NCBI GenBank assembly: GCA_964016885.1
Contig: OZ024740.1
Coordinates: 91,450,001 to 91,514,000, forward strand
Length of the DNA: 64,000 nucleotides
Source: Eledone cirrhosa
Lineage: Eukaryota
Direction: 5' to 3'
Of the stretch, positions 10,195 through 44,138 are shown piece after piece. The stretch's first letter is position 1, and every line of letters begins with the position of its first letter. Both the position numbers and the translations under genes were made by a program. The notes under the pieces are model-generated. The model did not search any database, was not told the origin of the DNA, and saw nothing but the letters and a program-made list of their open reading frames with translations.

Positions 10195-10237
10195 ACGTTG
10201 CTGACGATAGCTAACAAGCTTGAAACTAGTACAGCGT
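10195..10237 (+). ncRNA. Minimal type I hammerhead ribozyme
   Basis: acgttg-CTGACGA-t agct aaca agct t-GAAA-CTAG-TA-cagcgt; 6-bp stem I and palindromic ACTAGT stem III, typical of PLE/retrozyme hammerheads that work as dimers. Confidence 0.75.
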
Positions 10238-10618: not shown

Positions 10619-10661
10619 ACGTTGCTGACGATAGCTAACAAGCTTGAAACTAGTACAGCGT
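10619..10661 (+). ncRNA. Minimal type I hammerhead ribozyme (second tandem copy)
   Basis: Identical to 10195-10237. Confidence 0.75.
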
Positions 10662-11040
10662 TCCTTTGTCAGTGTTGAACAAACGAGCAACGGTGGTTGC
10701 TAGACACTACGGCTTAATACGGGATGTTTGTTTACAAACACACCGAGCATTATAATAAATGTTCGGTGAATCCATACGTGCATATATATATGTGTGCATG
10801 TATGTATATATATATATACATACTACTGTACGTCGGTATACATATATGTATGTACGTGTACATACTTATATTTAAGTAACAGCCGTACTAAGAGTGGGAA
10901 ATGAAATATCGTTTCATTTTTTCCGTTTATCGTTTTCGGTGCACCCGGCCGATTAACCCACTCGATATGCAAATTGGGCTACTCAGCCGTTAATATGCAT
11001 AAGGTAAGTATATACGTTCAACAATCTGGCAGGAAGGTAT

Positions 11041-11083
11041 ACGTTGATGACGATAGCTAACAAGCTTGAAACTAGTACAGCGT
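11041..11083 (+). ncRNA. Hammerhead, third tandem copy, C3 mutated to A (probably inactive)
   Basis: acgttg-ATGACGA...GAAACTAGTA-cagcgt. Confidence 0.5.
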
Positions 11084-11286
11084 TCCTTTGTCAGTGTTGA
11101 ACAAACGAGCAACGGTGGTTGCTAGACACTACGGCTTAATACGGGATGTTTGTTTACAAACACACCGAGCATTATAATAAATGTTCGGTGAATCCATACG
11201 TGCATATATATATGTGTGCATGTATGTATATATATATATACATACTACTGTACGTCGGTATACATATATGTATGTACGTGTACATA

Positions 11287-11336
<50 letters not shown>

Positions 11337-22805: not shown

Positions 22806-22810
22806 TTAAT

Positions 22811-22842
<32 letters not shown>

Positions 22843-22846
22843 ATAC

Positions 22847-22932
<86 letters not shown>

Positions 22933-22956
22933 CTATATATATATATATATATACAA

Positions 22957-22989
<33 letters not shown>

Positions 22990-23030
22990 TATATGTATAT
23001 ATATATATATATATATACATATATATATAC

Positions 23031-23076
<46 letters not shown>
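22806..23076. repeat. (TA)n microsatellite, left target of the PLE array
   Basis: Nearly pure TA repeat directly abutting the element terminus. Confidence 0.95.
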
Positions 23077-23078
<2 letters not shown>

Positions 23079-23169
23079 CGAAGGAAATGTGGTAAGGAAC
23101 CAGGTGGACCATAACGCACCAAAGTACTCAATACTTGAGGTAGTAGAGTGGGTAATAGGAACCAGTAAG

Positions 23170-23263
23170 ACCCCGACAGCTGAGCTCAAGCCGTTTCGAC
23201 GGCTAATTCTGGACTAAATGAAAATTTATCCTGGTATTTAAATAGCCGATCTTCTCAAGGGGT
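23170..23263 (-). ncRNA. Type I hammerhead ribozyme, U3-A8 core variant (unit 1)
   Basis: acccc-TTGAGAA-ga(t)cggcta...tagccgtc-GAAA-cggc ttgagctca gctg-TC-ggggt; predicted cut between 23175 and 23174. Confidence 0.7.
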
Positions 23264-24367
23264 AATTCCATATATGGTCAAAGTGATTGTCAAAAATCAG
23301 TAGTAATTCTGTGGTTGCAAATTAGTAGGGGAGATGGTGGCTAAACCTGCCAGTAGGAGAAAGAGGGGAGGGGGTGGAGTAGACCCAATCAAGCGTTGGT
23401 AGTGCCAGCTACAGCTGGGCATGAGGTCAAAGAAGATACAGGGGAGGGGAAGGGGAGGAAGTCGGAACGGTAGGTAGAACAATTGGGGGTAGAAATAGGA
23501 AAGAAAAAATACTGAGAGTGAAGAAAAGCAAATAAGTGTAAAGAAAAAGAAAAAGTAAAGTAAATTAAATTCAACGACCTAGGTGTCAGGCTATTGTTAG
23601 GCGAGAATAAAATAAAGAAAGAAAGAAAGAAGTAAATAAATAAATAAATAAATAAATAAGGAAATAAGTAAGAGAACTAGGTGGGACAGATAAGGCAAGG
23701 ACCCTTTTAAGAGGTATAAATACGTAAATGATACGGTGACGGGTCAACAAAAGGGGCCAAAATACTAAAGAGACTACCACGAAATAAACAATAAAGGTTT
23801 CCATCCCGGGCCAGCAACGACCCAGTGCAGCAAAGTGAACTTGTACGAGATAATAATTCTGAGTCCCGGGAAAAATATATACTAATGCTAACTCTAAAAG
23901 ATCTAAAACAAGCTACATGAAAGTTCGTACGAAATAAAGGTAGAATACGGAGAAATAAATTCAGAATCCACCCCGCCCAGAAGAAAAGCGAAGCAAGAAA
24001 TACTGAAACGAAAAAATAAGGCATAAGTGCCACTAAGAAATATAGAGGGCACAGAGAATAGTGGGAGCGGTCGGAAAAAGGGGGAAAGTATCCGGGGTCT
24101 AAGCCAACTGCTATAAAGGGCGGAGTCCGCCAAATCTATCAAAGACTAGGGGAGGGTGGGGGGGTACTAAGGCTACATGGGGCCAAAGGGCAGCCTCGGG
24201 TGGGCGAGAAAAGACGCCGACAAAGGAGAAGAGCTGGGGTAGAAGGACAAAGGAGAGAGGGGGGAAGGAAATAAAGGAAGCGATAAAAGAATACAAAGAA
24301 GATCTTACGTCTTCCTTGGCAAGCAGGGGTTACCCATTGCAAAATCGGCAACTGGGGTGTTATAGCC

Positions 24368-26674
24368 CTAGTCTACCCCCCCCGGGTCATTATGGGGTTT
24401 GAGGGCGAGGTAAGTCCTACGCAATCTATGTTTACATGCAGTAACCAGTTCATCTTTCTTGTTTAGGAGTTGGTCCGTCGAAAACAGCATTTGTAAAGTT
24501 TCCTCCGAGCATAAATTGCACGGACGGCGTCCTCCCGTGTAAGAATTGGCTCTGGACAGTAATCTCCAAGTGAGATCATAGGTGATGTTGTTGTCCTTGA
24601 GGTCCCATATGTGGCCCGAAAGTGTAGTGGCGTGACGCCGGGCCGGGTTTCGGAAGGTATGTCTATGTTGGTATAGCCGGGTCTTGAAGTCACATGCGGT
24701 AAGTCCTATATAGGCTTTGTTGGAGGTATCCGTCCTCACGTTGCACTGGTAGATCACATTACGGTCTCTGCATCTATTGTCGAGTGGGCAAATAGATCTA
24801 TCCGGGCAGTTACACCTCCTGGTCGGTTCTCCACTGCTAATTAGGTTATTTCTGCCATCGGGGTTGAGTTTTTTGTTGTTAGAGGAGACGATGTTTTGTG
24901 CGAAGTTTGGTGTAGTGCTGTAAGAGAGTTTGATGGTATTTTTGTTAATTATGTTGTGGTAGCGGTGTTGTAATGGGAAGTGTTTTTCAATGAGCCTAAA
25001 GAATAGTTTCCCGATGGGAGTAGTCACCTCTGCGTTGTGGGGAGGATTGAACCATGTTACATTGCGTGAGCGGCGGTGTCTCCTGCTGGTTCCGCTAATG
25101 GGAGCTGGACAGTAGGATATTTCCTCCCGGAAACCACTCCGCTTGAGGGCCTGATTGTAATAAGGCGCATGTTCATCGAATATCCGCTCATTAGCTGACA
25201 AACGGGATATGCGGAGGGAGATGTTTTTGACCAGGTTGTTTGTGATATTCCTAGGATGGTTTGATCGGCGGTGGATGTAGTGCAGATTGTCATTAGGTTT
25301 CCTGTATGGGTAGTACAGGTCGTTTTCGAGGTCGAGGGTTACGTCCAGGAAGTTTACTCGGGTCAGGGACGTTTGTAGGGTTATTTTAAATCCCCAGTCG
25401 CGGAAGAATCTGATTAATTGTTTCCGGACCCGATCTGTACTACTGGGGTTGTACCCTTTAAGGGTAAGGAGCCCATCATCACGGTACAATCCACCACCGA
25501 ATGCAGGAAACATATCAGTGAGTTTGGCTATTAGGAATAATCCTATAAGATCAGTGACCTCCGCCGAATCCGTGGCGCCCATGCTGACGTCGAAGGGTGA
25601 GTCGGGAGCTCTTTTTATCCATTTAGAGTTGTCAAAGAGTAAGACTGTCTTCCTGGCGTGGAGGATGATTTTTCTTTCCTGGTCGGTGATGGGCACGAGT
25701 GTTTCGGCGAAGTCCAAGGCGGCAGTAAGTAGCGGTAAGGTGATTGAAGCATAGTAGCTCTCTATGTCGAACTGTATGAATTTAGTTTCTCGTTTATCCT
25801 CCATATTGCTGAACCAGGAGATTACTTCCTGGGTGTTGATCCATAGGCTAAGTCGGGTGTGTTGCTTGACTTTTGGTATCACGCGGTCTAGGATTTTTTT
25901 GCTGATTCTCCCTATGTCGGACTTCGTTGGGTTAATAAGCCTGATGGAGGGTTTACGGTCAAAATCGGATTTATGGTCCTTCAGTGTGAAGTATGGTGTC
26001 CGTGGGTCTAGAGGTTCCGTGCGGTCGGCGACCCCGAGGCTGGAGGTGATTTGTTGTCCATCTCGATTTATGTCCTCGATACAAGAGTGGTTGGCCTTTT
26101 TATAGGTGGAGTTTAGGCTGCTCCTGATCAGTGTGTGGTATCTGTCAGGGTTGACAAAGTATAGGTTCCCAGTTTTATCCGAATGCACCATGATGTCATT
26201 TGTGTTATCATACTCTGTTAGGTTGCTACGGAGTTTTTGTAGGAATCGGTTGTGTCTGGGTTTAAATTTAATGTTCTTGACCAGTTGGAAGAGGTCATTC
26301 TCGAAGGGTGCGAGCAAGGGGTTCAGGGGCGGAGATTTGTAGGTAATAAATCCGAATCTCTCCTTGGTGCTGAAGTCTTGGTTGTCGCAATATCTGTCAT
26401 AGAAAAAAGTTCTCCATCTAAGTCTTTTCGCAAATAGATCAATTTTTTGCGTGAGCATCCGAAGGTAAAGTTTTTTTGGTGGGATTGGGATGTTCTTGGT
26501 AGAGAAGTCAATGTTGTGTTTTCGCATGGTGCGGGTGAAATGAATTGAGCTTAGCGGAAAAGTCTGGATACGGCGTGGTAGGGTCGGAAAGTGCTCTACT
26601 ACGGGAGTAGGAGCTAGATAACGAAGGAAATGTGGTAAGGAACCAGGTGGACCATAACGCACCAAAGTACTCAA
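24368..26674 (-). CDS. PLE reverse transcriptase + C-terminal GIY-YIG endonuclease (Hydra-clade-like), intact
   Basis: SDKT, FDIESYY, MGATDS, YRDD, NFLDV, YRKP, WFNPP, CxCx5Cx5C linker, VIY..YIG, FKTRLYQH, CNLC..E. The listed start is TTG; the first ATG is at 26527 (719 aa). Confidence 0.95.
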   Translation of the reverse strand: MSTLVRYGPPGSLPHFLRYLAPTPVVEHFPTLPRRIQTFPLSSIHFTRTMRKHNIDFSTKNIPIPPKKLYLRMLTQKIDLFAKRLRWRTFFYDRYCDNQDFSTKERFGFITYKSPPLNPLLAPFENDLFQLVKNIKFKPRHNRFLQKLRSNLTEYDNTNDIMVHSDKTGNLYFVNPDRYHTLIRSSLNSTYKKANHSCIEDINRDGQQITSSLGVADRTEPLDPRTPYFTLKDHKSDFDRKPSIRLINPTKSDIGRISKKILDRVIPKVKQHTRLSLWINTQEVISWFSNMEDKRETKFIQFDIESYYASITLPLLTAALDFAETLVPITDQERKIILHARKTVLLFDNSKWIKRAPDSPFDVSMGATDSAEVTDLIGLFLIAKLTDMFPAFGGGLYRDDGLLTLKGYNPSSTDRVRKQLIRFFRDWGFKITLQTSLTRVNFLDVTLDLENDLYYPYRKPNDNLHYIHRRSNHPRNITNNLVKNISLRISRLSANERIFDEHAPYYNQALKRSGFREEISYCPAPISGTSRRHRRSRNVTWFNPPHNAEVTTPIGKLFFRLIEKHFPLQHRYHNIINKNTIKLSYSTTPNFAQNIVSSNNKKLNPDGRNNLISSGEPTRRCNCPDRSICPLDNRCRDRNVIYQCNVRTDTSNKAYIGLTACDFKTRLYQHRHTFRNPARRHATTLSGHIWDLKDNNITYDLTWRLLSRANSYTGGRRPCNLCSEETLQMLFSTDQLLNKKDELVTACKHRLRRTYLALKPHNDPGGVD

Positions 26675-26712
26675 TACTTGAGGTAGTAGAGTGGGTAATA
26701 GGAACCAGTAAG

Positions 26713-26806
26713 ACCCCGACAGCTGAGCTCAAGCCGTTTCGACGGCTAATTCTGGACTAAATGAAAATTTATCCTGGTATTTAAATAGCCGATCTTCTCA
26801 AGGGGT
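26713..26806 (-). ncRNA. Type I hammerhead ribozyme, U3-A8 variant (unit 2)
   Basis: Identical to 23170-23263. Confidence 0.7.
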
Positions 26807-27915
26807 AATTCCATATATGGTCAAAGTGATTGTCAAAAATCAGTAGTAATTCTGTGGTTGCAAATTAGTAGGGGAGATGGTGGCTAAACCTGCCAGTAGG
26901 AGAAAGAGGGGAGGGGGTGGAGTAGACCCAATCAAGCGTTGGTAGTGCCAGCTACAGCTGGGCATGAGGTCAAAGAAGATACAGGGGAGGGGAGGGGGAG
27001 GAAGTCGGAACGGTAGGTAGAACAATGGGGGGTAGAAATAGGAAAGAAAAAATACTGAGAGTGAAGAAAAGCAAATAAGTGTAAAGAAAAAGAAAAAGTA
27101 AAGTAAATTAAATTCAACGACCTAGGTGTCAGGCTATTGTTAGGCGAGAATAAAATAAAGAAAGAAAGAAAGAAGTAAATAAATAAATAAATAAATAAAT
27201 AAGGAAATAAGTAAGAGAACTAGGTGGGACAGATAAGGCAAGGACCCTTTTAAGAGGTATAAGTACGTAAATGATACGGTGACGGGTCAACAAAAGGGGC
27301 CAAAATACTAAAGAGACTACCACGAAATAAACAATAAAGGTTTCCATCCCGGGCCAGCAACGACCCAGTGCAGCAAAGTGAACTTGTACGAGATAATAAT
27401 TCTGAGTCCCGGGAAAAATATATACTAATGCTAACTCTAAAAGATCTAAAACAAGCTACATGAAAGTTCGTACGAAATAAAGGTAGAATACGGAGAAATA
27501 AATTCAGAATCCACCCCGCCCAGAAGAAAAGCGAAGCAAGAAATACTGAAACGAAAAAATAAGGCATAAGTGCCACTAAGAAATATAGAGGGCACAGAGA
27601 ATAGTGGGAGCGGTCGGAAAAAGGGGGAAAGTATCCGGGGTCTAAGCCAACTGCTATAAAGGGCGGAGTCCGCCAAATCTATCAAAGACTAGGGGAGGGT
27701 GGGGGGGTACTAAGGCTACATGGGGCCAAAGGGCAGCCTCGGGTGGGCGAGAAAAGACGCCGACAAAGGAGAAGAGCTGGGGTAGAAGGACAAAGGAGAG
27801 AGGGGGGAAGGAAATAAAGGAAGCGATAAAAGAATACAAAGAAGATCTTACGTCTTCCTTGGCAAGCAGGGGTTACCCATTGCAAAATCGGCAACTGGGG
27901 TGTTATAGCCCTAGT

Positions 27916-30216
27916 CTACCCCCCCGGGTCATTATGGGGTTTGAGGGCGAGGTAAGTCCTACGCAATCTATGTTTACATGCAGTAACCAGTTCATCTTTC
28001 TTGTTTAGGAGTTGGTCCGTCGAAAACAGCATTTGTAAAGTTTCCTCCGAGCATAAATTGCACGGACGGCGTCCTCCCGTGTAAGAATTGGCTCTGGACA
28101 GTAATCTCCAAGTGAGATCATAGGTGATGTTGTTGTCCTTGAGGTCCCATATGTGGCCCGAAAGTGTAGTGGCGTGACGCCGGGCCGGGTTTCGGAAGGT
28201 ATGTCTATGTTGGTATAGCCGGGTCTTGAAGTCACATGCGGTAAGTCCTATATAGGCTTTGTTGGAGGTATCCGTCCTCACGTTGCACTGGTAGATCACA
28301 TTACGGTCTCTGCATCTATTGTCGAGTGGGCAAATAGATCTATCCGGGCAGTTACACCTCCTGGTCGGTTCTCCACTGCTAATTAGGTTATTTCTGCCAT
28401 CGGGGTTGAGTTTTTTGTTGTTAGAGGAGACGATGTTTTGTGCGAAGTTTGGTGTAGTGCTGTAAGAGAGTTTGATGGTATTTTTGTTAATTATGTTGTG
28501 GTAGCGGTGTTGTAATGGGAAGTGTTTTTCAATGAGCCTAAAGAATAGTTTCCCGATGGGAGTAGTCACCTCTGCGTTGTGGGGAGGATTGAACCATGTT
28601 ACATTGCGTGAGCGGCGGTGTCTCCTGCTGGTTCCGCTAATGGGAGCTGGACAGTAGGATATTTCCTCCCGGAAACCACTCCGCTTGAGGGCCTGATTGT
28701 AATAAGGCGCATGTTCATCGAATATCCGCTCATTAGCTGACAAACGGGATATGCGGAGGGAGATGTTTTTGACCAGGTTGTTTGTGATATTCCTAGGATG
28801 GTTTGATCGGCGGTGGATGTAGTGCAGATTGTCATTAGGTTTCCTGTATGGGTAGTACAGGTCGTTTTCGAGGTCGAGGGTTACGTCCAGGAAGTTTACT
28901 CGGGTCAGGGACGTTTGTAGGGTTATTTTAAATCCCCAGTCGCCGAAGAATCTGATTAATTGTTTCCGGACCCGATCTGTACTACTGGGGTTGTACCCTT
29001 TAAGGGTAAGGAGCCCATCATCACGGTACAATCCACCACCGAATGCAGGAAACATATCAGTGAGTTTGGCTATTAGGAATAATCCTATAAGATCAGTGAC
29101 CTCCGCCGAATCCGTGGCGCCCATGCTGACGTCGAAGGGTGAGTCGGGAGCTCTTTTTATCCATTTAGAGTTGTCAAAGAGTAAGACTGTCTTCCTGGCG
29201 TGGAGGATGATTTTTCTTTCCTGGTCGGTGATGGGCACGAGTGTTTCGGCGAAGTCCAAGGCGGCAGTAAGTAGCGGTAAGGTGATTGAAGCATAGTAGC
29301 TCTCTATGTCGAACTGTATGAATTTAGTTTCTCGTTTATCCTCCATATTGCTGAACCAGGAGATTACTTCCTGGGTGTTGATCCATAGGCTAAGTCGGGT
29401 GTGTTGCTTGACTTTTGGTATCACGCGGTCTAGGATTTTTTTGCTGATTCTCCCTATGTCGGACTTCGTTGGGTTAATAAGCCTGATGGAGGGTTTACGG
29501 TCAAAATCGGATTTATGGTCCTTCAGTGTGAAGTATGGTGTCCGTGGGTCTAGAGGTTCCGTGCGGTCGGCGACCCCGAGGCTGGAGGTGATTTGTTGTC
29601 CATCTCGATTTATGTCCTCGATACAAGAGTGGTTGGCCTTTTTATAGGTGGAGTCTAGGCTGCTCCTGATCAGTGTGTGGTATCTGTCAGGGTTGACAAA
29701 GTATAGGTTCCCAGTTTTATCCGAATGCACCATGATGTCATTTGTGTTATCATACTCTGTTAGGTTGCTACGGAGTTTTTGTAGGAATCGGTTGTGTCTG
29801 GGTTTAAATTTAATGTTCTTGACCAGTTGGAAGAGGTCATTCTCGAAGGGTGCGAGCAAGGGGTTCAGGGGCGGAGATTTGTAGGTAATAAATCCGAATC
29901 TCTCCTTGGTGCTGAAGTCTTGGTTGTCGCAATATCTGTCATAGAAAAAAGTTCTCCATCTAAGTCTTTTCGCAAATAGATCAATTTTTTGCGTGAGCAT
30001 CCGAAGGTAAAGTTTTTTTGGTGGGATTGGGATGTTCTTGGTAGAGAAGTCAATGTTGTGTTTTCGCATGGTGCGGGTGAAATGAATTGAGCTTAGCGGA
30101 AAAGTCTGGATACGGCGTGGTAGGGTCGGAAAGTGCTCTACTACGGGAGTAGGAGCTAGATAACGAAGGAAATGTGGTAAGGAACCAGGTGGACCATAAC
30201 GCACCAAAGTACTCAA
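27916..30216 (-). CDS. PLE RT + GIY-YIG endonuclease, intact (copy 2)
   Basis: As copy 1, with N>D and R>G substitutions; a 1-nt shorter C run trims the last two residues. First ATG at 30069. Confidence 0.95.
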   Translation of the reverse strand: MSTLVRYGPPGSLPHFLRYLAPTPVVEHFPTLPRRIQTFPLSSIHFTRTMRKHNIDFSTKNIPIPPKKLYLRMLTQKIDLFAKRLRWRTFFYDRYCDNQDFSTKERFGFITYKSPPLNPLLAPFENDLFQLVKNIKFKPRHNRFLQKLRSNLTEYDNTNDIMVHSDKTGNLYFVNPDRYHTLIRSSLDSTYKKANHSCIEDINRDGQQITSSLGVADRTEPLDPRTPYFTLKDHKSDFDRKPSIRLINPTKSDIGRISKKILDRVIPKVKQHTRLSLWINTQEVISWFSNMEDKRETKFIQFDIESYYASITLPLLTAALDFAETLVPITDQERKIILHARKTVLLFDNSKWIKRAPDSPFDVSMGATDSAEVTDLIGLFLIAKLTDMFPAFGGGLYRDDGLLTLKGYNPSSTDRVRKQLIRFFGDWGFKITLQTSLTRVNFLDVTLDLENDLYYPYRKPNDNLHYIHRRSNHPRNITNNLVKNISLRISRLSANERIFDEHAPYYNQALKRSGFREEISYCPAPISGTSRRHRRSRNVTWFNPPHNAEVTTPIGKLFFRLIEKHFPLQHRYHNIINKNTIKLSYSTTPNFAQNIVSSNNKKLNPDGRNNLISSGEPTRRCNCPDRSICPLDNRCRDRNVIYQCNVRTDTSNKAYIGLTACDFKTRLYQHRHTFRNPARRHATTLSGHIWDLKDNNITYDLTWRLLSRANSYTGGRRPCNLCSEETLQMLFSTDQLLNKKDELVTACKHRLRRTYLALKPHNDPGG

Positions 30217-30254
30217 TACTTGAGGTAGTAGAGTGGGTAATAGGAACCAGTAAG

Positions 30255-30348
30255 ACCCCGACAGCTGAGCTCAAGCCGTTTCGACGGCTAATTCTGGACT
30301 AAATGAAAATTTATCCTGGTATTTAAATAGCCGATCTTCTCAAGGGGT
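30255..30348 (-). ncRNA. Type I hammerhead ribozyme, U3-A8 variant (unit 3)
   Basis: Identical to 23170-23263. Confidence 0.7.
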
Positions 30349-31452
30349 AATTCCATATATGGTCAAAGTGATTGTCAAAAATCAGTAGTAATTCTGTGGT
30401 TGCAAATTAGTAGGGGAGATGGTGGCTAAACCTGCCAGTAGGAGAAAGAGGGGAGGGGGTGGAGTAGACCCAATCAAGCGTTGGTAGTGCCAGCTACAGC
30501 TGGGCATGAGGTCAAAGAAGATACAGGGGAGGGGAAGGGGAGGAAGTCGGAACGGTAGGTAGAACAATTGGGGGTAGAAATAGGAAAGAAAAAATACTGA
30601 GAGTGAAGAAAAGCAAATAAGTGTAAAGAAAAAGAAAAAGTAAAGTAAATTAAATTCAACGACCTAGGTGTCAGGCTATTGTTAGGCGAGAATAAAATAA
30701 AGAAAGAAAGAAAGAAGTAAATAAATAAATAAATAAATAAATAAGGAAATAAGTAAGAGAACTAGGTGGGACAGATAAGGCAAGGACCCTTTTAAGAGGT
30801 ATAAGTACGTAAATGATACGGTGACGGGTCAACAAAAGGGGCCAAAATACTAAAGAGACTACCACGAAATAAACAATAAAGGTTTCCATCCCGGGCCAGC
30901 AACGACCCAGTGCAGCAAAGTGAACTTGTACGAGATAATAATTCTGAGTCCCGGGAAAAATATATACTAATGCTAACTCTAAAAGATCTAAAACAAGCTA
31001 CATGAAAGTTCGTACGAAATAAAGGTAGAATACGGAGAAATAAATTCAGAATCCACCCCGCCCAGAAGAAAAGCGAAGCAAGAAATACTGAAACGAAAAA
31101 ATAAGGCATAAGTGCCACTAAGAAATATAGAGGGCACAGAGAATAGTGGGAGCGGTCGGAAAAAGGGGGAAAGTATCCGGGGTCTAAGCCAACTGCTATA
31201 AAGGGCGGAGTCCGCCAAATCTATCAAAGACTAGGGGAGGGTGGGGGGGTACTAAGGCTACATGGGGCCAAAGGGCAGCCTCGGGTGGGCGAGAAAAGAC
31301 GCCGACAAAGGAGAAGAGCTGGGGTAGAAGGACAAAGGAGAGAGGGGGGAAGGAAATAAAGGAAGCGATAAAAGAATACAAAGAAGATCTTACGTCTTCC
31401 TTGGCAAGCAGGGGTTACCCATTGCAAAATCGGCAACTGGGGTGTTATAGCC

Positions 31453-33759
31453 CTAGTCTACCCCCCCCGGGTTATTATGGGGTTTGAGGGCGAGGTAAGT
31501 CCTACGCAATCTATGTTTACATGCAGTAACCAGTTCATCTTTCTTGTTTAGGAGTTGGTCCGTCGAAAACAGCATTTGTAAAGTTTCCTCCGAGCATAAA
31601 TTGCACGGACGGCGTCCTCCCGTGTAAGAATTGGCTCTGGACAGTAATCTCCAAGTGAGATCATAGGTGATGTTGTTGTCCTTGAGGTCCCATATGTGGC
31701 CCGAAAGTGTAGTGGCGTGACGCCGGGCCGGGTTTCGGAAGGTATGTCTATGTTGGTATAGCCGGGTCTTGAAGTCACATGCGGTAAGTCCTATATAGGC
31801 TTTGTTGGAGGTATCCGTCCTCACGTTGCACTGGTAGATCACATTACGGTCTCTGCATCTATTGTCGAGTGGGCAAATAGATCTATCCGGGCAGTTACAC
31901 CTCCTGGTCGGTTCTCCACTGCTAATTAGGTTATTTCTGCCATCGGGGTTGAGTTTTTTGTTGTTAGAGGAGACGATGTTTTGTGCGAAGTTTGGTGTAG
32001 TGCTGTAAGAGAGTTTGATGGTATTTTTGTTAATTATGTTGTGGTAGCGGTGTTGTAATGGGAAGTGTTTTTCAATGAGCCTAAAGAATAGTTTCCCGAT
32101 GGGAGTAGTCACCTCTGCGTTGTGGGGAGGATTGAACCATGTTACATTGCGTGAGCGGCGGTGTCTCCTGCTGGTTCCGCTAATGGGAGCTGGACAGTAG
32201 GATATTTCCTCCCGGAAACCACTCCGCTTGAGGGCCTGATTGTAATAAGGCGCATGTTCATCGAATATCCGCTCATTAGCTGACAAACGGGATATGCGGA
32301 GGGAGATGTTTTTGACCAGGTTGTTTGTGATATTCTTAGGATGGTTTGATCGGCGGTGGATGTAGTGCAGATTGTCATTAGGTTTCCTGTATGGGTAGTA
32401 CAGGTCGTTTTCGAGGTCGAGGGTTACGTCCAGGAAGTTTACTCGGGTCAGGGACGTTTGTAGGGTTATTTTAAATCCCCAGTCGCGGAAGAATCTGATT
32501 AATTGTTTCCGGACCCGATCTGTACTACTGGGGTTGTACCCTTTAAGGGTAAGGAGCCCATCATCACGGTACAATCCACCACCGAATGCAGGAAACATAT
32601 CAGTGAGTTTGGCTATTAGGAATAATCCTATAAGATCAGTGACCTCCGCCGAATCCGTGGCGCCCATGCTGACGTCGAAGGGTGAGTCGGGAGCTCTTTT
32701 TATCCATTTAGAGTTGTCAAAGAGTAAGACTGTCTTCCTGGCGTGGAGGATGATTTTTCTTTCCTGGTCGGTGATGGGCACGAGTGTTTCGGCGAAGTCC
32801 AAGGCGGCAGTAAGTAGCGGTAAGGTGATTGAAGCATAGTAGCTCTCTATGTCGAACTGTATGAATTTAGTTTCTCGTTTATCCTCCATATTGCTGAACC
32901 AGGAGATTACTTCCTGGGTGTTGATCCATAGGCTAAGTCGGGTGTGTTGCTTGACTTTTGGTATCACGCGGTCTAGGATTTTTTTGCTGATTCTCCCTAT
33001 GTCGGACTTCGTTGGGTTAATAAGCCTGATGGAGGGTTTACGGTCAAAATCGGATTTATGGTCCTTCAGTGTGAAGTATGGTGTCCGTGGGTCTAGAGGT
33101 TCCGTGCGGTCGGCGACCCCGAGGCTGGAGGTGATTTGTTGTCCATCTCGATTTATGTCCTCGATACAAGAGTGGTTGGCCTTTTTATAGGTGGAGTTTA
33201 GGCTGCTCCTGATCAGTGTGTGGTATCTGTCAGGGTTGACAAAGTATAGGTTCCCAGTTTTATCCGAATGCACCATGATGTCATTTGTGTTATCATACTC
33301 TGTTAGGTTGCTACGGAGTTTTTGTAGGAATCGGTTGTGCCTGGGTTTAAATTTAATGTTCTTGACCAGTTGGAAGAGGTCATTCTCGAAGGGTGCGAGC
33401 AAGGGGTTCAGGGGCGGAGATTTGTAGGTAATAAATCCGAATCTCTCCTTGGTGCTGAAGTCTTGGTTGTCGCAATATCTGTCATAGAAAAAAGTTCTCC
33501 ATCTAAGTCTTTTCGCAAATAGATCAATTTTTTGCGTGAGCATCCGAAGGTAAAGTTTTTTTGGTGGGATTGGGATGTTCTTGGTAGAGAAGTCAATGTT
33601 GTGTTTTCGCATGGTGCGGGTGAAATGAATTGAGCTTAGCGGAAAAGTCTGGATACGGCGTGGTAGGGTCGGAAAGTGCTCTACTACGGGAGTAGGAGCT
33701 AGATAACGAAGGAAATGTGGTAAGGAACCAGGTGGACCATAACGCACCAAAGTACTCAA
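31453..33759 (-). CDS. PLE RT + GIY-YIG endonuclease, intact (copy 3)
   Basis: As copy 1, with R>K and D>N substitutions. First ATG at 33612. Confidence 0.95.
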   Translation of the reverse strand: MSTLVRYGPPGSLPHFLRYLAPTPVVEHFPTLPRRIQTFPLSSIHFTRTMRKHNIDFSTKNIPIPPKKLYLRMLTQKIDLFAKRLRWRTFFYDRYCDNQDFSTKERFGFITYKSPPLNPLLAPFENDLFQLVKNIKFKPRHNRFLQKLRSNLTEYDNTNDIMVHSDKTGNLYFVNPDRYHTLIRSSLNSTYKKANHSCIEDINRDGQQITSSLGVADRTEPLDPRTPYFTLKDHKSDFDRKPSIRLINPTKSDIGRISKKILDRVIPKVKQHTRLSLWINTQEVISWFSNMEDKRETKFIQFDIESYYASITLPLLTAALDFAETLVPITDQERKIILHARKTVLLFDNSKWIKRAPDSPFDVSMGATDSAEVTDLIGLFLIAKLTDMFPAFGGGLYRDDGLLTLKGYNPSSTDRVRKQLIRFFRDWGFKITLQTSLTRVNFLDVTLDLENDLYYPYRKPNDNLHYIHRRSNHPKNITNNLVKNISLRISRLSANERIFDEHAPYYNQALKRSGFREEISYCPAPISGTSRRHRRSRNVTWFNPPHNAEVTTPIGKLFFRLIEKHFPLQHRYHNIINKNTIKLSYSTTPNFAQNIVSSNNKKLNPDGRNNLISSGEPTRRCNCPDRSICPLDNRCRDRNVIYQCNVRTDTSNKAYIGLTACDFKTRLYQHRHTFRNPARRHATTLSGHIWDLKDNNITYDLTWRLLSRANSYTGGRRPCNLCSEETLQMLFSTDQLLNKKDELVTACKHRLRRTYLALKPHNNPGGVD

Positions 33760-33797
33760 TACTTGAGGTAGTAGAGTGGGTAATAGGAACCAGTAAG

Positions 33798-33891
33798 ACC
33801 CCGACAGCTGAGCTCAAGCCGTTTCGACGGCTAATTCTGGACTAAATGAAAATTTATCCTGGTATTTAAATAGCCGATCTTCTCAAGGGGT
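33798..33891 (-). ncRNA. Type I hammerhead ribozyme, U3-A8 variant (unit 4)
   Basis: Identical to 23170-23263. Confidence 0.7.
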
Positions 33892-35000
33892 AATTCCATA
33901 TATGGTCAAAGTGATTGTCAAAAATCAGTAGTAATTCTGTGGTTGCAAATTAGTAGGGGAGATGGTGGCTAAACCTGCCAGTAGGAGAAAGAGGGGAGGG
34001 GGTGGAGTAGACCCAATCAAGCGTTGGTAGTGCCAGCTACAGCTGGGCATGAGGTCAAAGAAGATACAGGGGAGGGGAGGGGGAGGAAGTCGGAACGGTA
34101 GGTAGAACAATGGGGGGTAGAAATAGGAAAGAAAAAATACTGAGAGTGAAGAAAAGCAAATAAGTGTAAAGAAAAAGAAAAAGTAAAGTAAATTAAATTC
34201 AACGACCTAGGTGTCAGGCTATTGTTAGGCGAGAATAAAATAAAGAAAGAAAGAAAGAAGTAAATAAATAAATAAATAAATAAATAAGGAAATAAGTAAG
34301 AGAACTAGGTGGGACAGATAAGGCAAGGACCCTTTTAAGAGGTATAAGTACGTAAATGATACGGTGACGGGTCAACAAAAGGGGCCAAAATACTAAAGAG
34401 ACTACCACGAAATAAACAATAAAGGTTTCCATCCCGGGCCAGCAACGACCCAGTGCAGCAAAGTGAACTTGTACGAGATAATAATTCTGAGTCCCGGGAA
34501 AAATATATACTAATGCTAACTCTAAAAGATCTAAAACAAGCTACATGAAAGTTCGTACGAAATAAAGGTAGAATACGGAGAAATAAATTCAGAATCCACC
34601 CCGCCCAGAAGAAAAGCGAAGCAAGAAATACTGAAACGAAAAAATAAGGCATAAGTGCCACTAAGAAATATAGAGGGCACAGAGAATAGTGGGAGCGGTC
34701 GGAAAAAGGGGGAAAGTATCCGGGGTCTAAGCCAACTGCTATAAAGGGCGGAGTCCGCCAAATCTATCAAAGACTAGGGGAGGGTGGGGGGGTACTAAGG
34801 CTACATGGGGCCAAAGGGCAGCCTCGGGTGGGCGAGAAAAGACGCCGACAAAGGAGAAGAGCTGGGGTAGAAGGACAAAGGAGAGAGGGGGGAAGGAAAT
34901 AAAGGAAGCGATAAAAGAATACAAAGAAGATCTTACGTCTTCCTTGGCAAGCAGGGGTTACCCATTGCAAAATCGGCAACTGGGGTGTTATAGCCCTAGT

Positions 35001-37301
35001 CTACCCCCCCGGGTCATTATGGGGTTTGAGGGCGAGGTAAGTCCTACGCAATCTATGTTTACATGCAGTAACCAGTTCATCTTTCTTGTTTAGGAGTTGG
35101 TCCGTCGAAAACAGCATTTGTAAAGTTTCCTCCGAGCATAAATTGCACGGACGGCGTCCTCCCGTGTAAGAATTGGCTCTGGACAGTAATCTCCAAGTGA
35201 GATCATAGGTGATGTTGTTGTCCTTGAGGTCCCATATGTGGCCCGAAAGTGTAGTGGCGTGACGCCGGGCCGGGTTTCGGAAGGTATGTCTATGTTGGTA
35301 TAGCCGGGTCTTGAAGTCACATGCGGTAAGTCCTATATAGGCTTTGTTGGAGGTATCCGTCCTCACGTTGCACTGGTAGATCACATTACGGTCTCTGCAT
35401 CTATTGTCGAGTGGGCAAATAGATCTATCCGGGCAGTTACACCTCCTGGTCGGTTCTCCACTGCTAATTAGGTTATTTCTGCCATCGGGGTTGAGTTTTT
35501 TGTTGTTAGAGGAGACGATGTTTTGTGCGAAATTTGGTGTAGTGCTGTAAGAGAGTTTGATGGTATTTTTGTTAATTATGTTGTGGTAGCGGTGTTGTAA
35601 TGGGAAGTGTTTTTCAATGAGCCTAAAGAATAGTTTCCCGATGGGAGTAGTCACCTCTGCGTTGTGGGGAGGATTGAACCATGTTACATTGCGTGAGCGG
35701 CGGTGTCTCCTGCTGGTTCCGCTAATGGGAGCTGGACAGTAGGATATTTCCTCCCGGAAACCACTCCGCTTGAGGGCCTGATTGTAATAAGGCGCATGTT
35801 CATCGAATATCCGCTCATTAGCTGACAAACGGGATATGCGGAGGGAGATGTTTTTGACCAGGTTGTTTGTGATATTCCTAGGATGGTTTGATCGGCGGTG
35901 GATGTAGTGCAGATTGTCATTAGGTTTCCTGTATGGGTAGTACAGGTCGTTTTCGAGGTCGAGGGTTACGTCCAGGAAGTTTACTCGGGTCAGGGACGTT
36001 TGTAGGGTTATTTTAAATCCCCAGTCGCCGAAGAATCTGATTAATTGTTTCCGGACCCGATCTGTACTACTGGGGTTGTACCCTTTAAGGGTAAGGAGCC
36101 CATCATCACGGTACAATCCACCACCGAATGCAGGAAACATATCAGTGAGTTTGGCTATTAGGAATAATCCTATAAGATCAGTGACCTCCGCCGAATCCGT
36201 GGCGCCCATGCTGACGTCGAAGGGTGAGTCGGGAGCTCTTTTTATCCATTTAGAGTTGTCAAAGAGTAAGACTGTCTTCCTGGCGTGGAGGATGATTTTT
36301 CTTTCCTGGTCGGTGATGGGCACGAGTGTTTCGGCGAAGTCCAAGGCGGCAGTAAGTAGCGGTAAGGTGATTGAAGCATAGTAGCTCTCTATGTCGAACT
36401 GTATGAATTTAGTTTCTCGTTTATCCTCCATATTGCTGAACCAGGAGATTACTTCCTGGGTGTTGATCCATAGGCTAAGTCGGGTGTGTTGCTTGACTTT
36501 TGGTATCACGCGGTCTAGGATTTTTTTGCTGATTCTCCCTATGTCGGACTTCGTTGGGTTAATAAGCCTGATGGAGGGTTTACGGTCAAAATCGGATTTA
36601 TGGTCCTTCAGTGTGAAGTATGGTGTCCGTGGGTCTAGAGGTTCCGTGCGGTCGGCGACCCCGAGGCTGGAGGTGATTTGTTGTCCATCTCGATTTATGT
36701 CCTCGATACAAGAGTGGTTGGCCTTTTTATAGGTGGAGTTTAGGCTGCTCCTGATCAGTGTGTGGTATCTGTCAGGGTTGACAAAGTATAGGTTCCCAGT
36801 TTTATCCGAATGCACCATGATGTCATTTGTGTTATCATACTCTGTTAGGTTGCTACGGAGTTTTTGTAGGAATCGGTTGTGTCTGGGTTTAAATTTAATG
36901 TTCTTGACCAGTTGGAAGAGGTCATTCTCGAAGGGTGCGAGCAAGGGGTTCAGGGGCGGAGATTTGTAGGTAATAAATCCGAATCTCTCCTTGGTGCTGA
37001 AGTCTTGGTTGTCGCAATATCTGTCATAGAAAAAAGTTCTCCATCTAAGTCTTTTCGCAAATAGATCAATTTTTTGCGTGAGCATCCGAAGGTAAAGTTT
37101 TTTTGGTGGGATTGGGATGTTCTTGGTAGAGAAGTCAATGTTGTGTTTTCGCATGGTGCGGGTGAAATGAATTGAGCTTAGCGGAAAAGTCTGGATACGG
37201 CGTGGTAGGGTCGGAAAGTGCTCTACTACGGGAGTAGGAGCTAGATAACGAAGGAAATGTGGTAAGGAACCAGGTGGACCATAACGCACCAAAGTACTCA
37301 A
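35001..37301 (-). CDS. PLE RT + GIY-YIG endonuclease, intact (copy 4)
   Basis: Same haplotype as copy 2 (FFGDW, short C run). First ATG at 37154. Confidence 0.95.
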   Translation of the reverse strand: MSTLVRYGPPGSLPHFLRYLAPTPVVEHFPTLPRRIQTFPLSSIHFTRTMRKHNIDFSTKNIPIPPKKLYLRMLTQKIDLFAKRLRWRTFFYDRYCDNQDFSTKERFGFITYKSPPLNPLLAPFENDLFQLVKNIKFKPRHNRFLQKLRSNLTEYDNTNDIMVHSDKTGNLYFVNPDRYHTLIRSSLNSTYKKANHSCIEDINRDGQQITSSLGVADRTEPLDPRTPYFTLKDHKSDFDRKPSIRLINPTKSDIGRISKKILDRVIPKVKQHTRLSLWINTQEVISWFSNMEDKRETKFIQFDIESYYASITLPLLTAALDFAETLVPITDQERKIILHARKTVLLFDNSKWIKRAPDSPFDVSMGATDSAEVTDLIGLFLIAKLTDMFPAFGGGLYRDDGLLTLKGYNPSSTDRVRKQLIRFFGDWGFKITLQTSLTRVNFLDVTLDLENDLYYPYRKPNDNLHYIHRRSNHPRNITNNLVKNISLRISRLSANERIFDEHAPYYNQALKRSGFREEISYCPAPISGTSRRHRRSRNVTWFNPPHNAEVTTPIGKLFFRLIEKHFPLQHRYHNIINKNTIKLSYSTTPNFAQNIVSSNNKKLNPDGRNNLISSGEPTRRCNCPDRSICPLDNRCRDRNVIYQCNVRTDTSNKAYIGLTACDFKTRLYQHRHTFRNPARRHATTLSGHIWDLKDNNITYDLTWRLLSRANSYTGGRRPCNLCSEETLQMLFSTDQLLNKKDELVTACKHRLRRTYLALKPHNDPGG

Positions 37302-37339
37302 TACTTGAGGTAGTAGAGTGGGTAATAGGAACCAGTAAG

Positions 37340-37433
37340 ACCCCGACAGCTGAGCTCAAGCCGTTTCGACGGCTAATTCTGGACTAAATGAAAATTTATC
37401 CTGGTATTTAAATAGCCGATCTTCTCAAGGGGT
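37340..37433 (-). ncRNA. Type I hammerhead ribozyme, U3-A8 variant (unit 5)
   Basis: Identical to 23170-23263. Confidence 0.7.
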
Positions 37434-38542
37434 AATTCCATATATGGTCAAAGTGATTGTCAAAAATCAGTAGTAATTCTGTGGTTGCAAATTAGTAGGG
37501 GAGATGGTGGCTAAACCTGCCAGTAGGAGAAAGAGGGGAGGGGGTGGAGTAGACCCAATCAAGCGTTGGTAGTGCCAGCTACAGCTGGGCATGAGGTCAA
37601 AGAAGATACAGGGGAGGGGAGGGGGAGGAAGTCGGAACGGTAGGTAGAACAATGGGGGGTAGAAATAGGAAAGAAAAAATACTGAGAGTGAAGAAAAGCA
37701 AATAAGTGTAAAGAAAAAGAAAAAGTAAAGTAAATTAAATTCAACGACCTAGGTGTCAGGCTATTGTTAGGCGAGAATAAAATAAAGAAAGAAAGAAAGA
37801 AGTAAATAAATAAATAAATAAATAAATAAGGAAATAAGTAAGAGAACTAGGTGGGACGGTTAAGGCAAGGACCCTTTTAAGAGGTATAAGTACGTAAATG
37901 ATACGGTGACGGGTCAACAAAAGGGGCCAAAATACTAAAGAGACTACCACGAAATAAACAATAAAGGTTTCCATCCCGGGCCAGCAACGACCCAGTGCAG
38001 CAAAGTGAACTTGTACGAGATAATAATTCTGAGTCCCGGGAAAAATATATACTAATGCTAACTCTAAAAGATCTAAAACAAGCTACATGAAAGTTCGTAC
38101 GAAATAAAGGTAGAATACGGAGAAATAAATTCAGAATCCACCCCGCCCAGAAGAAAAGCGAAGCAAGAAATACTGAAACGAAAAAATAAGGCATAAGTGC
38201 CACTAAGAAATATAGAGGGCACAGAGAATAGTGGGAGCGGTCGGAAAAAGGGGGAAAGTATCCGGGGTCTAAGCCAACTGCTATAAAGGGCGGAGTCCGC
38301 CAAATCTATCAAAGACTAGGGGAGGGTGGGGGGGTACTAAGGCTACATGGGGCCAAAGGGCAGCCTCGGGTGGGCGAGAAAAGACGCCGACAAAGGAGAA
38401 GAGCTGGGGTAGAAGGACAAAGGAGAGAGGGGGGAAGGAAATAAAGGAAGCGATAAAAGAATACAAAGAAGATCTTACGTCTTCCTTGGCAAGCAGGGGT
38501 TACCCATTGCAAAATCGGCAACTGGGGTGTTATAGCCCTAGT

Positions 38543-39170
38543 CTACCCCCCCGGGTCATTATGGGGTTTGAGGGCGAGGTAAGTCCTACGCAATCTATGT
38601 TTACATGCAGTAACCAGTTCATCTTTCTTGTTTAGGAGTTGGTCCGTCGAAAACAGCATTTGTAAAGTTTCCTCCGAGCATAAATTGCACGGACGGCGTC
38701 CTCCCGTGTAAGAATTGGCTCTGGACAGTAATCTCCAAGTGAGATCATAGGTGATGTTGTTGTCCTTGAGGTCCCATATGTGGCCCGAAAGTGTAGTGGC
38801 GTGACGCCGGGCCGGGTTTCGGAAGGTATGTCTATGTTGGTATAGCCGGGTCTTGAAGTCACATGCGGTAAGTCCTATATAGGCTTTGTTGGAGGTATCC
38901 GTCCTCACGTTGCACTGGTAGATCACATTACGGTCTCTGCATCTATTGTCGAGTGGGCAAATAGATCTATCCGGGCAGTTACACCTCCTGGTCGGTTCTC
39001 CACTGCTAATTAGGTTATTTCTGCCATCGGGGTTGAGTTTTTTGTTGTTAGAGGAGACGATGTTTTGTGCGAAGTTTGGTGTAGTGCTGTAAGAGAGTTT
39101 GATGGTATTTTTGTTAATTATGTTGTGGTAGCGGTGTTGTAATGGGAAGTGTTTTTCAATGAGCCTAAAT
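38543..39170 (-). pseudogene. 5'-truncated fifth ORF copy (linker + GIY-YIG only)
   Basis: Matches the 3' ~630 nt of the ORF, then runs directly into the 55-bp satellite. Confidence 0.92.
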
Positions 39171-42100
39171 AATTATGTTGTGGTAGCGGTGTTGTAATGG
39201 GAAGTGTTTTTCAATGAGCCTAAAGAATTATGTTGTGGTAGCGGTGTTGTAATGGGAAGTGTTTTTCAATGAGCCTAAAGAATTATGTTGTGGTAGCGGT
39301 GTTGTAATGGGAAGTGTTTTTCAATGAGCCTAAAGAATTATGTTGTGGTAGCGGTGTTGTAATGGGAAGTGTTTTTCAATGAGCCTAAAGAATTATATTG
39401 TGGTAGCGGTGTTGTAATGGGAAGTGTTTTTCAATGAGCCTAAAGAATTATGTTGTGGTAGCGGTGTTGTAATGGGAAGTGTTTTTCAATGAGCCTAAAG
39501 AATTATGTTGTGGTAGCGGTGTTGTAATGGGAAGTGTTTTTCAATGAGCCTAAAGAATTATGTTGTGGTAGCGGTGTTGTAATGGGAAGTGTTTTTCAAT
39601 GAGCCTAAAGAATTATGTTGTGGTAGCGGTGTTGTAATGGGAAGTGTTTTTCAATGAGCCTAAAGAATTATGTTGTGGTAGCGGTGTTGTAATGGGAAGT
39701 GTTTTTCAATGAGCCTAAAGAATTATGTTGTGGTAGCGGTGTTGTAATGGGAAGTGTTTTTCAATGAGCCTAAAGAATTATGTTGTGGTAGCGGTGTTGT
39801 AATGGGAAGTGTTTTTCAATGAGCCTAAAGAATTATGTTGTGGTAGCGGTGTTGTAATGGGAAGTGTTTTTCAATGAGCCTAAAGAACTATGTTGTGGTA
39901 GCGGTGTTGTAATGGGAAGTGTTTTTCAATGAGCCTAAAGAATTATGTTGTGGTAGCGGTGTTGTAATGGGAAGTGTTTTTCAATGAGCCTAAAGAATTA
40001 TGTTGTGGTAGCGGTGTTGTAATGGGAAGTGTTTTTCAATGAGCCTAAAGAATTATGTTGTGGTAGCGGTGTTGTAATGGGAAGTGTTTTTCAATGAGCC
40101 TAAAGAATTATGTTGTGGTAGCGGTGTTGTAATGGGAAGTGTTTTTCAATGAGCCTAAAGAATTATGTTGTGGTAGCGGTGTTGTAATGGGAAGTGTTTT
40201 TCAATGAGCCTAAAGAATTATGTTGTGGTAGCGGTGTTGTAATGGGAAGTGTTTTTCAATGAGCCTAAAGAATTATGTTGTGGTAGCGGTGTTGTAATGG
40301 GAAGTGTTTTTCAATGAGCCTAAAGAATTATGTTGTGGTAGCGGTGTTGTAATGGGAAGTGTTTTTCAATGAGCCTAAAGAATTATGTTGTGGTAGCGGT
40401 GTTGTAATGGGAAGTGTTTTTCAATGAGCCTAAAGAATTATGTTGTGGTAGCGGTGTTGTAATGGGAAGTGTTTTTCAATGAGCCTAAAGAATTATGTTG
40501 TGGTAGCGGTGTTGTAATGGGAAGTGTTTTTCAATGAGCCTAAAGAATTATGTTGTGGTAGCGGTGTTGTAATGGGAAGTGTTTTTCAATGAGCCTAAAG
40601 AATTATGTTGTGGTAGCGGTGTTGTAATGGGAAGTGTTTTTCAATGAGCCTAAAGAATTATGTTGTGGTAGCGGTGTTGTAATGGGAAGTGTTTTTCAAT
40701 GAGCCTAAAGAATTATGTTGTGGTAGCGGTGTTGTAATGGGAAGTGTTTTTCAATGAGCCTAAAGAATTATGTTGTGGTAGCGGTGTTGTAATGGGAAGT
40801 GTTTTTCAATGAGCCTAAAGAATTATGTTGTGGTAGCGGTGTTGTAATGGGAAGTGTTTTTCAATGAGCCTAAAGAATTATGTTGTGGTAGCGGTGTTGT
40901 AATGGGAAGTGTTTTTCAATGAGCCTAAAGAATTATGTTGTGGTAGCGGTGTTGTAATGGGAAGTGTTTTTCAATGAGCCTAAAGAATTATGTTGTGGTA
41001 GCGGTGTTGTAATGGGAAGTGTTTTTCAATGAGCCTAAAGAATTATGTTGTGGTAGCGGTGTTGTAATGGGAAGTGTTTTTCAATGAGCCTAAAGAATTA
41101 TGTTGTGGTAGCGGTGTTGTAATGGGAAGTGCTTTTCAATGAGCCTAAAGAATTATGTTGTGGTAGCGGTGTTGTAATGGGAAGTGCTTTTCAATGAGCC
41201 TAAAGAATTATGTTGTGGTAGCGGTGTTGTAATGGGAAGTGCTTTTCAATGAGCCTAAAGAATTATGTTGTGGTAGCGGTGTTGTAATGGGAAGTGTTTT
41301 TCAATGAGCCTAAAGAATTATGTTGTGGTAGCGGTGTTGTAATGGGAAGTGTTTTTCAATGAGCCTAAAGAATTATGTTGTGGTAGCGGTGTTGTAATGG
41401 GAAGTGTTTTTCAATGAGCCTAAAGAATTATGTTGTGGTAGCGGTGTTGTAATGGGAAGTGTTTTTCAATGAGCCTAAAGAATTATGTTGTGGTAGCGGT
41501 GTTGTAATGGGAAGTGTTTTTCAATGAGCCTAAAGAATTATGTTGTGGTAGCGGTGTTGTAATGGGAAGTGTTTTTCAATGAGCCTAAAGAATTATGTTG
41601 TGGTAGCGGTGTTGTAATGGGAAGTGTTTTTCAATGAGCCTAAAGAATTATGTTGTGGTAGCGGTGTTGTAATGGGAAGTGTTTTTCAATGAGCCTAAAG
41701 AATTATGTTGTGGTAGCGGTGTTGTAATGGGAAGTGTTTTTCAATGAGCCTAAAGAATTATGTTGTGGTAGCGGTGTTGTAATGGGAAGTGTTTTTCAAT
41801 GAGCCTAAAGAATTATGTTGTGGTAGCGGTGTTGTAATGGGAAGTGTTTTTCAATGAGCCTAAAGAATTATGTTGTGGTAGCGGTGTTGTAATGGGAAGT
41901 GTTTTTCAATGAGCCTAAAGAATTATGTTGTGGTAGCGGTGTTGTAATGGGAAGTGTTTTTCAATGAGCCTAAAGAATTATGTTGTGGTAGCGGTGTTGT
42001 AATGGGAAGTGTTTTTCAATGAGCCTAAAGAATTATGTTGTGGTAGCGGTGTTGTAATGGGAAGTGTTTTTCAATGAGCCTAAAGAATTATGTTGTGGTA

Positions 42101-42741
42101 GCGGTGTTGTAATGGGAAGTGTTTTTCAATGAGCCTAAAGAATTATGTTGTGGTAGCGGTGTTGTAATGGGAAGTGTTTTTCAATGAGCCTAAAGAATTA
42201 TGTTGTGGTAGCGGTGTTGTAATGGGAAGTGTTTTTCAATGAGCCTAAAGAATTATGTTGTGGTAGCGGTGTTGTAATGGGAAGTGTTTTTCAATGAGCC
42301 TAAAGAATTATGTTGTGGTAGCGGTGTTGTAATGGGAAGTGTTTTTCAATGAGCCTAAAGAATTATGTTGTGGTAGCGGTGTTGTAATGGGAAGTGTTTT
42401 TCAATGAGCCTAAACAATTATGTTGTGGTAGCGGTGTTGTAATGGGAAGTGTTTTTCAATGAGCCTAAAGAATTATGTTGTGGTAGCGGTGTTGTAATGG
42501 GAAGTGTTTTTCAATGAGCCTAAAGAATTATGTTGTGGTAGCGGTGTTGTAATGGGAAGTGTTTTTCAATGAGCCTAAAGAATTATGTTGTGGTAGCGGT
42601 GTTGTAATGGGAAGTGTTTTTCAATGAGCCTAAAGAATTATGTTGTGGTAGCGGTGTTGTAATGGGAAGTGTTTTTCAATGAGCCTAAAGAATTATGTTG
42701 TGGTAGCGGTGTTGTAATGGGAAGTGTTTTTCAATGAGCCT
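39116..42741. repeat. 55-bp tandem satellite, 65 full units + one 51-nt partial unit, derived from the PLE ORF
   Basis: Unit aattatgttgtggtagcggtgttgtaatgggaagtgtttttcaatgagcctaaag is identical to 24947-25001; only about 7 variant bases seen. Confidence 0.97.

Positions 42742-44138
<1,397 letters not shown>

Follow-up and report, generated by a model that had tools for sequence, protein, structure and literature searches.

A tandem array of a 55-nucleotide (nt) segment, copied from the open reading frame (ORF) of a Penelope-like retroelement, occupies the point where two head-to-head arms of one insertion of that element meet in the genome of Eledone cirrhosa. The window in which it was found is a 64,000-nt stretch of contig OZ024740.1 (positions 91,450,001 to 91,514,000 of assembly GCA_964016885.1). 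A sequence-only reading of the window had proposed that the element's reverse transcriptase (RT) wrote the array by translocating repeatedly on its own RNA, in the manner of telomerase. We find instead that this new satellite DNA was likely seeded during the Penelope insertion, at the join of the arms, and probably by re-copying DNA rather than RNA. An account in which re-priming stutter on DNA at the join was followed by growth at the DNA level is the one we hold to be probable, with modest confidence. This likeliest answer is less striking than the telomerase-like one.

The array is real in the assembly, where the original observation is confirmed. Tandem Repeats Finder (TRF) gives it a period of 55, 65.9 copies, 99% matches and no indels, just as first described, and it holds 65 complete 55-nt units and a further 51 nt, a copy number that comes from the assembly. 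The unit equals positions 24947-25001 of the intact ORF and is flanked by AAT at 24947-49 and 25002-04, which also bears out the earlier description. An exact-match search of the 3.0-Gb assembly with the head-to-tail unit junction returned 61 matches, every one inside this array and none anywhere outside it. Both edges are clean, with the truncated fifth element copy on one side (its match extends over 37248-39173 and includes unit 1 of the array) and the second arm on the other. That arm, which matches 23155-24252, had been described as an inverted pseudo-long terminal repeat; it is indeed inverted and directly follows the array, but it is the 1.08-kb second arm of the insertion. The insertion as a whole consists of four complete 3543-nt copies and a partial fifth, the array and the inverted arm, with (TA)n on both sides. 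The array is 91 Mb into a 443-Mb contig and thus not at a chromosome end.

Seven of the 65 whole units deviate from the others, through five variant events. One of these, T37C, is common to three adjacent units (37, 38 and 39), whereas the other four are singletons, and three of the five sit in the four junction columns (p ~0.003, post hoc). Variants inherited between adjacent units cannot be given by copying from a single RNA, so the presence of T37C in three neighbors requires copying from DNA, or else a consensus error. The origin of T37C as a family allele carried by a second RNA was ruled out, since 104 of 104 family copies carry T, and adenosine-to-inosine editing of the template, considered as a known mechanism, found no support. 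Duplication at the DNA level is visible in three ways: in T37C, in the pairing of element copies 1 with 3 and 2 with 4 within the insertion, and in repeated blocks of a second long array, on C4.

That second array spans G000:C4:377,010,952-377,040,758 (loci L181-L184), where a 59-nt unit is repeated 505.7 times over ~29.8 kb. It consists of the last 59 nt of an element copy truncated at the equivalent of position 25403, and therefore derives from a different ORF segment, 25345-25403, than the window array does. Its host copy is older (~92% to the best sampled locus in the ORF), its junction has 0 nt of overlap in the element, and it is located 1.8 Mb from the contig end; no second arm was found within 11 kb beyond it. 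Contigs of public sequencing runs carry a backward joint from 25403 to 25345/25347 at a depth of up to 284, against ~6-26 for other contig joints, and within one sample (S4) the contigs of three runs show the joint independently. A pattern for this joint has 475 matches in the genome, and the 100 listed are all on C4. The array consensus equals the active element sequence, to which 63 of 506 units are identical; units carry 2.4 changes each on average, the 109 distinct variants include none above 13%, and blocks repeat at lags of 61 and 71. Because two of two long arrays lie at an arm's end, a chance position is unlikely.

The element belongs to a large and young Penelope-like family, with 1895 exact matches of a 3′ pattern in the genome and 949 and 458 matches of more internal patterns. 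The typical insertion of this family has two arms that run head to head from two fixed points 77 nt apart, and start points 1 and 78 are paired in 75 of 119 two-armed loci, as they are in the window. Tandem and inverted insertions with a tail, produced by the two start points, are thus found here as in other Penelope-like elements. The survey sample comprised 180 loci (1.38 Mb), some of them overlapping and most on C1-C2, taken from the first 100 places of each match list. It contains no further long array beyond the one on C4, which was itself found via reads. The window insertion, with a density of ~6 private substitutions in 16 kb, falls in the youngest quarter. Because of the two-armed layout, and because a Penelope protein cuts and extends both target strands in vitro, the window array would be located where the 3′ ends of two complementary DNAs (cDNAs) were joined.

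Short repeats are enriched at the integration joins of this sample. Overlaps of 1-14 nt occur at 83 of 121 distinct joins (BLAST tiles), and exact direct repeats of at least 11 nt are present at 13 of the 121, compared to 11 of 466 random sites inside arms (Fisher p = 2e-4). With a threshold of at least 9 nt the counts are 20 of 121 and 24 of 466 (p = 1e-4). The proposed tie between repeat and truncation point is upheld by this excess and by the second long array, both of which are new here. A survey for junction-anchored repeats, which the sequence-only reading had suggested, thus yields the C4 array and the enriched short repeats; the expected bounding repeat of 2-4 nt is missing from the C4 array.

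The 20 join repeats of at least 9 nt were sorted by judgement into four due to chance (L110, L155, L191 and L196), 11 with units from one arm, the special case L192, and four composites. L192 has a 19-nt, one-arm unit present three times, with an overlap that is supplied by the other arm and exists only once the arms are joined. Units in L207 (38 nt), L246 (43 nt) and L256 (175 nt) are built from both arms, and L127 carries a repeated patchwork absent from every other locus. The four composite units are absent from every element copy and therefore require a DNA template; the element RNA cannot supply them. All three join repeats with periods of 38-175 nt are composite. Some joins therefore carry DNA-templated stutter, while the 11 one-arm repeats fit RNA- and DNA-templated copying equally. 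L142 was dropped as a composite and assigned to the one-arm class because its repeat occurs in 67 other loci. Patchwork with a (TA)n flank was also seen at 4 of 45 single-arm ends.

We infer that the window array began like the DNA-stutter joins. Both cut target strands would prime cDNA synthesis, and the resulting arms would be joined through short overlaps. The 3′ end of one arm would probably prime on the single-stranded cDNA of the other, copy the last 55 bases, release and re-prime on the terminal AAT, with DNA as the putative template of the stutter. The array would then likely expand by DNA-level duplication. The most likely enzyme would be the RT of the element, after a switch to partner cDNA to make the second strand. 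A T stands at the first array junction. This base is the one upstream of the segment and may reflect a one-base overshoot in leftward copying, followed by re-priming on AAT, or repair at the edge of a loop; to leave it by jumping on RNA, the RT would have had to move exactly the same 55 nt without any homology. Two versions of the stutter account can be told apart. One, in which an indel-accurate polymerase, most likely the element RT on partner cDNA, made many copies in one event, is a tentative choice; the other, in which a seed of two or three copies expanded afterwards through replication slippage or unequal exchange, is somewhat more doubtful.

Several observations weigh against DNA stutter as the source of the window array. 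Both long arrays are made from one arm whereas the composite cases have about two copies, and another process may therefore make long arrays. No array of 4-60 copies is present in the 180 loci, and one-arm repeats, which make up 11-12 of 16 join repeats, fit an RNA template just as well. Additions and deletions by the human enzyme DNA polymerase theta (Pol theta) in vitro, at rates of 3.3e-3 and 1.4e-3 as given in the cited part of PMC2441791, predict ~17 indels in 3626 nt where none is observed, so Pol theta alone is an unlikely author of the array; an RT or a replicative polymerase fits the indel-free sequence. The excess of variants in junction columns is not predicted by slow growth on DNA but could be produced by RNA jumps. 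DNA stutter also leaves the halt after 55 nt in each round without explanation.

The size at which the arrays were born was explored with a simple model run at the insertion's own mutation density. The probability of five variant events is 0.016-0.14 if the window array was born at 64 units and <0.001-0.003 if it grew from two, whereas with just the two non-junction events the models barely separate (0.08-0.19 versus 0.42-0.81). For the C4 array, the 109 distinct variants are nearer to the expectation for few founders (simulated median 122-130) than for many (159-174), but the low top frequency favors 8-16 or more founders (P 0.07 for two), and this mixed outcome is no more than a hint. Birth at a large size does not tell an RNA from a DNA template.

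The strongest competitor is reiteration on RNA, wherein the RT would have met a broken 5′ end or a block near 25004 and, ahead of arm joining, stepped back 55 nt dozens of times, with a few units added later on DNA. Both long arrays are one-arm, at the arm's end and in cDNA orientation, as this would have it, and the singletons among the variants, their junction positions, the lack of indels, and the simulated preference for birth at large size over growth from two copies agree with it. So do the C4 consensus, which equals the active element, and the absence of any C4 variant above 13%. Precedents exist in that Penelope-like RTs are sisters to telomerase RT (PMC8557442, in the portion cited) and that the DRT2 RT reiterates a 120-nt template (PMC12039810, likewise). 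Against these points, an RNA template is needed by none of the small cases and a DNA template by four, the two non-junction events barely separate the simulated models, and the C4 variant count is nearer to few founders. RNA folding of both array units revealed no common closing stem around them, and arm ends do not pile up at the two source sites (3 and 0 of 242 lie within 15 nt). The AAT repeat had been assigned the role of a telomerase-type alignment region. Its flanks are in place, but the C4 array, which has no alignment region, and the first window junction, where the upstream T leaves no AAT overlap as read, speak against a need for it. The AAT repeat is weak evidence, since a partner of at least 3 nt within 40-70 nt exists for 81% of ORF positions, although a random segment has a 3-nt alignment partner just 6% of the time. 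The G/T-richness of the unit, also put forward as a sign, is ordinary (0.67 versus 0.61 in the ORF, with 23% of 55-nt ORF windows as rich). Translocation of the RT on its own RNA is thus not supported in its original form, on account of the DNA-requiring small cases and the inherited variants, and as a source of the bulk of the array it is unlikely without being negligible. The broader proposition that Penelope RT has repeat-addition processivity, re-copying a 55-60-nt segment tens of times per integration event on either RNA or partner cDNA, has a chance slightly short of even, while its partner-cDNA version taken separately is rather improbable.

The remaining explanations are far less probable. 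Unrelated tandem repeats are numerous in the window and in the C4 region, and DNA-level duplication is active at both loci, so that a chance minisatellite formed by slippage after integration might be entertained; the placement of both long arrays at the last bases of a ~2-kb arm and the five-fold enrichment of short repeats at joins make an origin unrelated to joining very improbable. An assembler might have inflated a short duplication, and the alternating element copies could represent two stacked haplotypes. The 55-nt joint is indeed absent from the 15 of 44 joints listed for four read runs and from four further runs, which gave no backward joint, but no more than 45% of the words of the region occur in these runs, which probably come from other individuals, and the missing joint neither confirms nor refutes the array. 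Five distinct variant events, zero indels, clean ends and the C4-type joint seen independently in three runs of one sample make an artefact similarly remote. A 55-nt minicircle of RNA or DNA, excised from the ORF and copied as a rolling circle, would be in keeping with the 4.5 tandem element copies in the window. A circle has a single fixed junction, however, which does not suit the variable junction columns or the upstream T at the first junction. It would also take a coincidence for the circle to enter at precisely the end of the arm, and no canonical hammerhead core is present in unit or element, which leaves this the least probable explanation of all.

Transposons are a recognized source of minisatellites and satellites, in which tandem arrays arise from pieces of an element and are later shaped by block duplication. 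The difference here is that an array has been caught nearly unmutated and anchored at an integration join. The joins of this family record the joining step, and they form a continuum from two-copy stutters to arrays of 66 and 506 copies, so that the birth of a satellite can be traced to a single integration event. We found no report of reiterated ORF segments at Penelope joins in the open-access literature, and the cited portion of PMC12016303 holds nothing on the subject.

The joins match the iterative templated insertion described for microhomology-mediated (Pol theta) end joining (PMC12426944, in the part cited), with which they have in common short overlaps, flanking direct repeats, and iterative or patchwork inserts. 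Those inserts are usually <25 bp, in contrast to 3.6 and 30 kb here, and the young array is free of indels. L1 twin priming (in the cited portions of PMC11702581 and bioRxiv 10.1101/2024.08.27.596794) likewise joins two cDNAs, made from the two DNA ends, head to head by microhomology and leaves small duplications and switches at the join. The L1 duplications are short (median 22 bp) and single, whereas here each arm begins from the 3′ end, and one of the ends has been repeated tens to hundreds of times. For the Poseidon protein PAc, the cited part of Frangieh et al. 2024 (PMC11167929) describes cutting and extension of both target strands in vitro, with two fixed RT start sites that give a “tail”, much like points 1 and 78; PAc belongs to another clade, and no repeat ladder is reported there. 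How Penelope arms are joined and how the second strand is made are left open in the cited parts of PMC11167929 and PMC8557442.

Telomerase and DRT2 (PMC12039810, cited in part) resemble the arrays in repeating one segment head to tail in cDNA orientation, and a 3-nt direct repeat bounds the window unit. However, a dedicated template RNA and a fixed boundary are both lacking here, each array comes from a segment of its own, one of the two has no alignment region, and the outcome is an accident rather than a function. If RT repeat addition is the true source, it makes kilobase satellites in one step, which would be a telomerase-like activity in the sister enzymes of telomerase. Since an in vitro Penelope system is published, template reiteration by a Penelope-like RT, on RNA or DNA, is directly testable and bears on the origin of telomerase repeat addition. 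If host repair and slippage are responsible, a transposon-derived satellite has arisen here by a neat though unremarkable route.

By its sequence, the element is an endonuclease-containing (EN+) Penelope-like element with RT and GIY-YIG domains in one ORF; YRDD at 348 and YIG at 606 fall in a single reading frame. Neighbors of the ORF protein in the Atlas (0.96-0.99) carry HTH_animal, GIY-YIG and RVT_1 on some members, and Pfam and PDB searches of the protein returned nothing relevant. Motifs typical of the Hydra clade of C-terminal EN+ elements (Craig et al. 2021, PMC8557442) include RWR, DKT at 117, CNCPDRSIC from 572, CNLC at 670 and CKH at 698, with one Cys before YIG and no CCHH motif. 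As far as the cited part of that paper describes the clade, the likeness comprises a single ORF with an RW motif, DKT, a CxCx5C linker, CxxC and CxH but not CCHH, together with (TA)n targets and tandem or inverted insertions. TA is present on both flanks of the window insertion, and the loose ends in reads are TA runs. The window element differs in its unit of 3.5 kb, versus under 3 kb, and in having no canonical hammerhead, and the same part of the paper describes no reiterated internal segments. A search for the canonical hammerhead core (CUGANGA..GAAA) on either strand of unit or element found none, nor was there an Rfam hammerhead. Because this core was not found, the name we derive from protein motifs and (TA)n target is only “Hydra-like”. 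On the element's sense strand, 23155-23260 contains a CUUGAGA word, a long stem and GAAAC beside start point 78, and most family members carry a CUUGAGA variant before the stem and GAAAC. Judged from sequence, this region resembles a non-canonical hammerhead.

Table 1. Coordinates of the insertion, its arrays and their sources (window positions).
Feature	Positions	Strand	Remarks	Basis
(TA)n target	22809..23077	.	left flank of insertion	TRF
Copy 1	23078..26620	-	3543-nt Penelope-like unit; arm 1 begins at 23078 (start point 1)	
719-aa ORF	24371..26527	-	RT (YRDD) and C-terminal GIY-YIG-type endonuclease; Hydra-clade motifs	
Source of 55-nt repeat	24947..25004	+	in intact ORF; segment plus second AAT	sequence comparison
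Source of second array	25345..25403	+	506 x 59 nt on G000:C4; no flanking direct repeat	
Copy 2	26621..30162	-	derived base in common with copy 4	
Copy 3	30163..33705	-	derived bases in common with copy 1	
Copy 4	33706..37247	-		
Copy 5	37248..39115	-	truncated within ORF; continues into array unit 1	
55-nt array	39116..42741	+	inner end of arm 1	TRF and unit comparison
Variant events in array, by unit			1 G55T; 6 G7A; 15 T3C; 37-39 T37C; 60 G55C	
Arm 2	42742..43820	+	inverted 3′ part of element, from second fixed point (23155, start point 78)	
(TA)n target	43818..43928	.	right flank of insertion	TRF

The element copies in 23078-39115 alternate, copy 1 being like 3 and copy 2 like 4, and copy 5 holds two bases seen in other family members. 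This alternation may represent a 7-kb DNA duplication, mixed templates or stacked haplotypes; a search for an alternate-haplotype copy of the right flank found none. In its 1.08 kb, arm 2 carries four private substitutions and has lost a small hairpin through a 19-nt deletion, a density ~10 times that of arm 1. The family has further multi-copy tandem insertions at G000:C1:437.19-437.22 Mb, C1:377.71 Mb, C2:11.11 Mb and C2:51.28 Mb. Fold-back or short inverted pieces, such as cDNA self-priming would leave, were observed at inner arm ends in L091, L096, L103, L111, L124, L194 and L242. Elsewhere in the window, a 422-nt unit repeated 2.8 times adjoins (TA)n at 10122-11293, and two more degraded RT-like ORF regions are present at 47973-49976 and 11618-12497, the first of which resembles a Penelope element of the window's kind.

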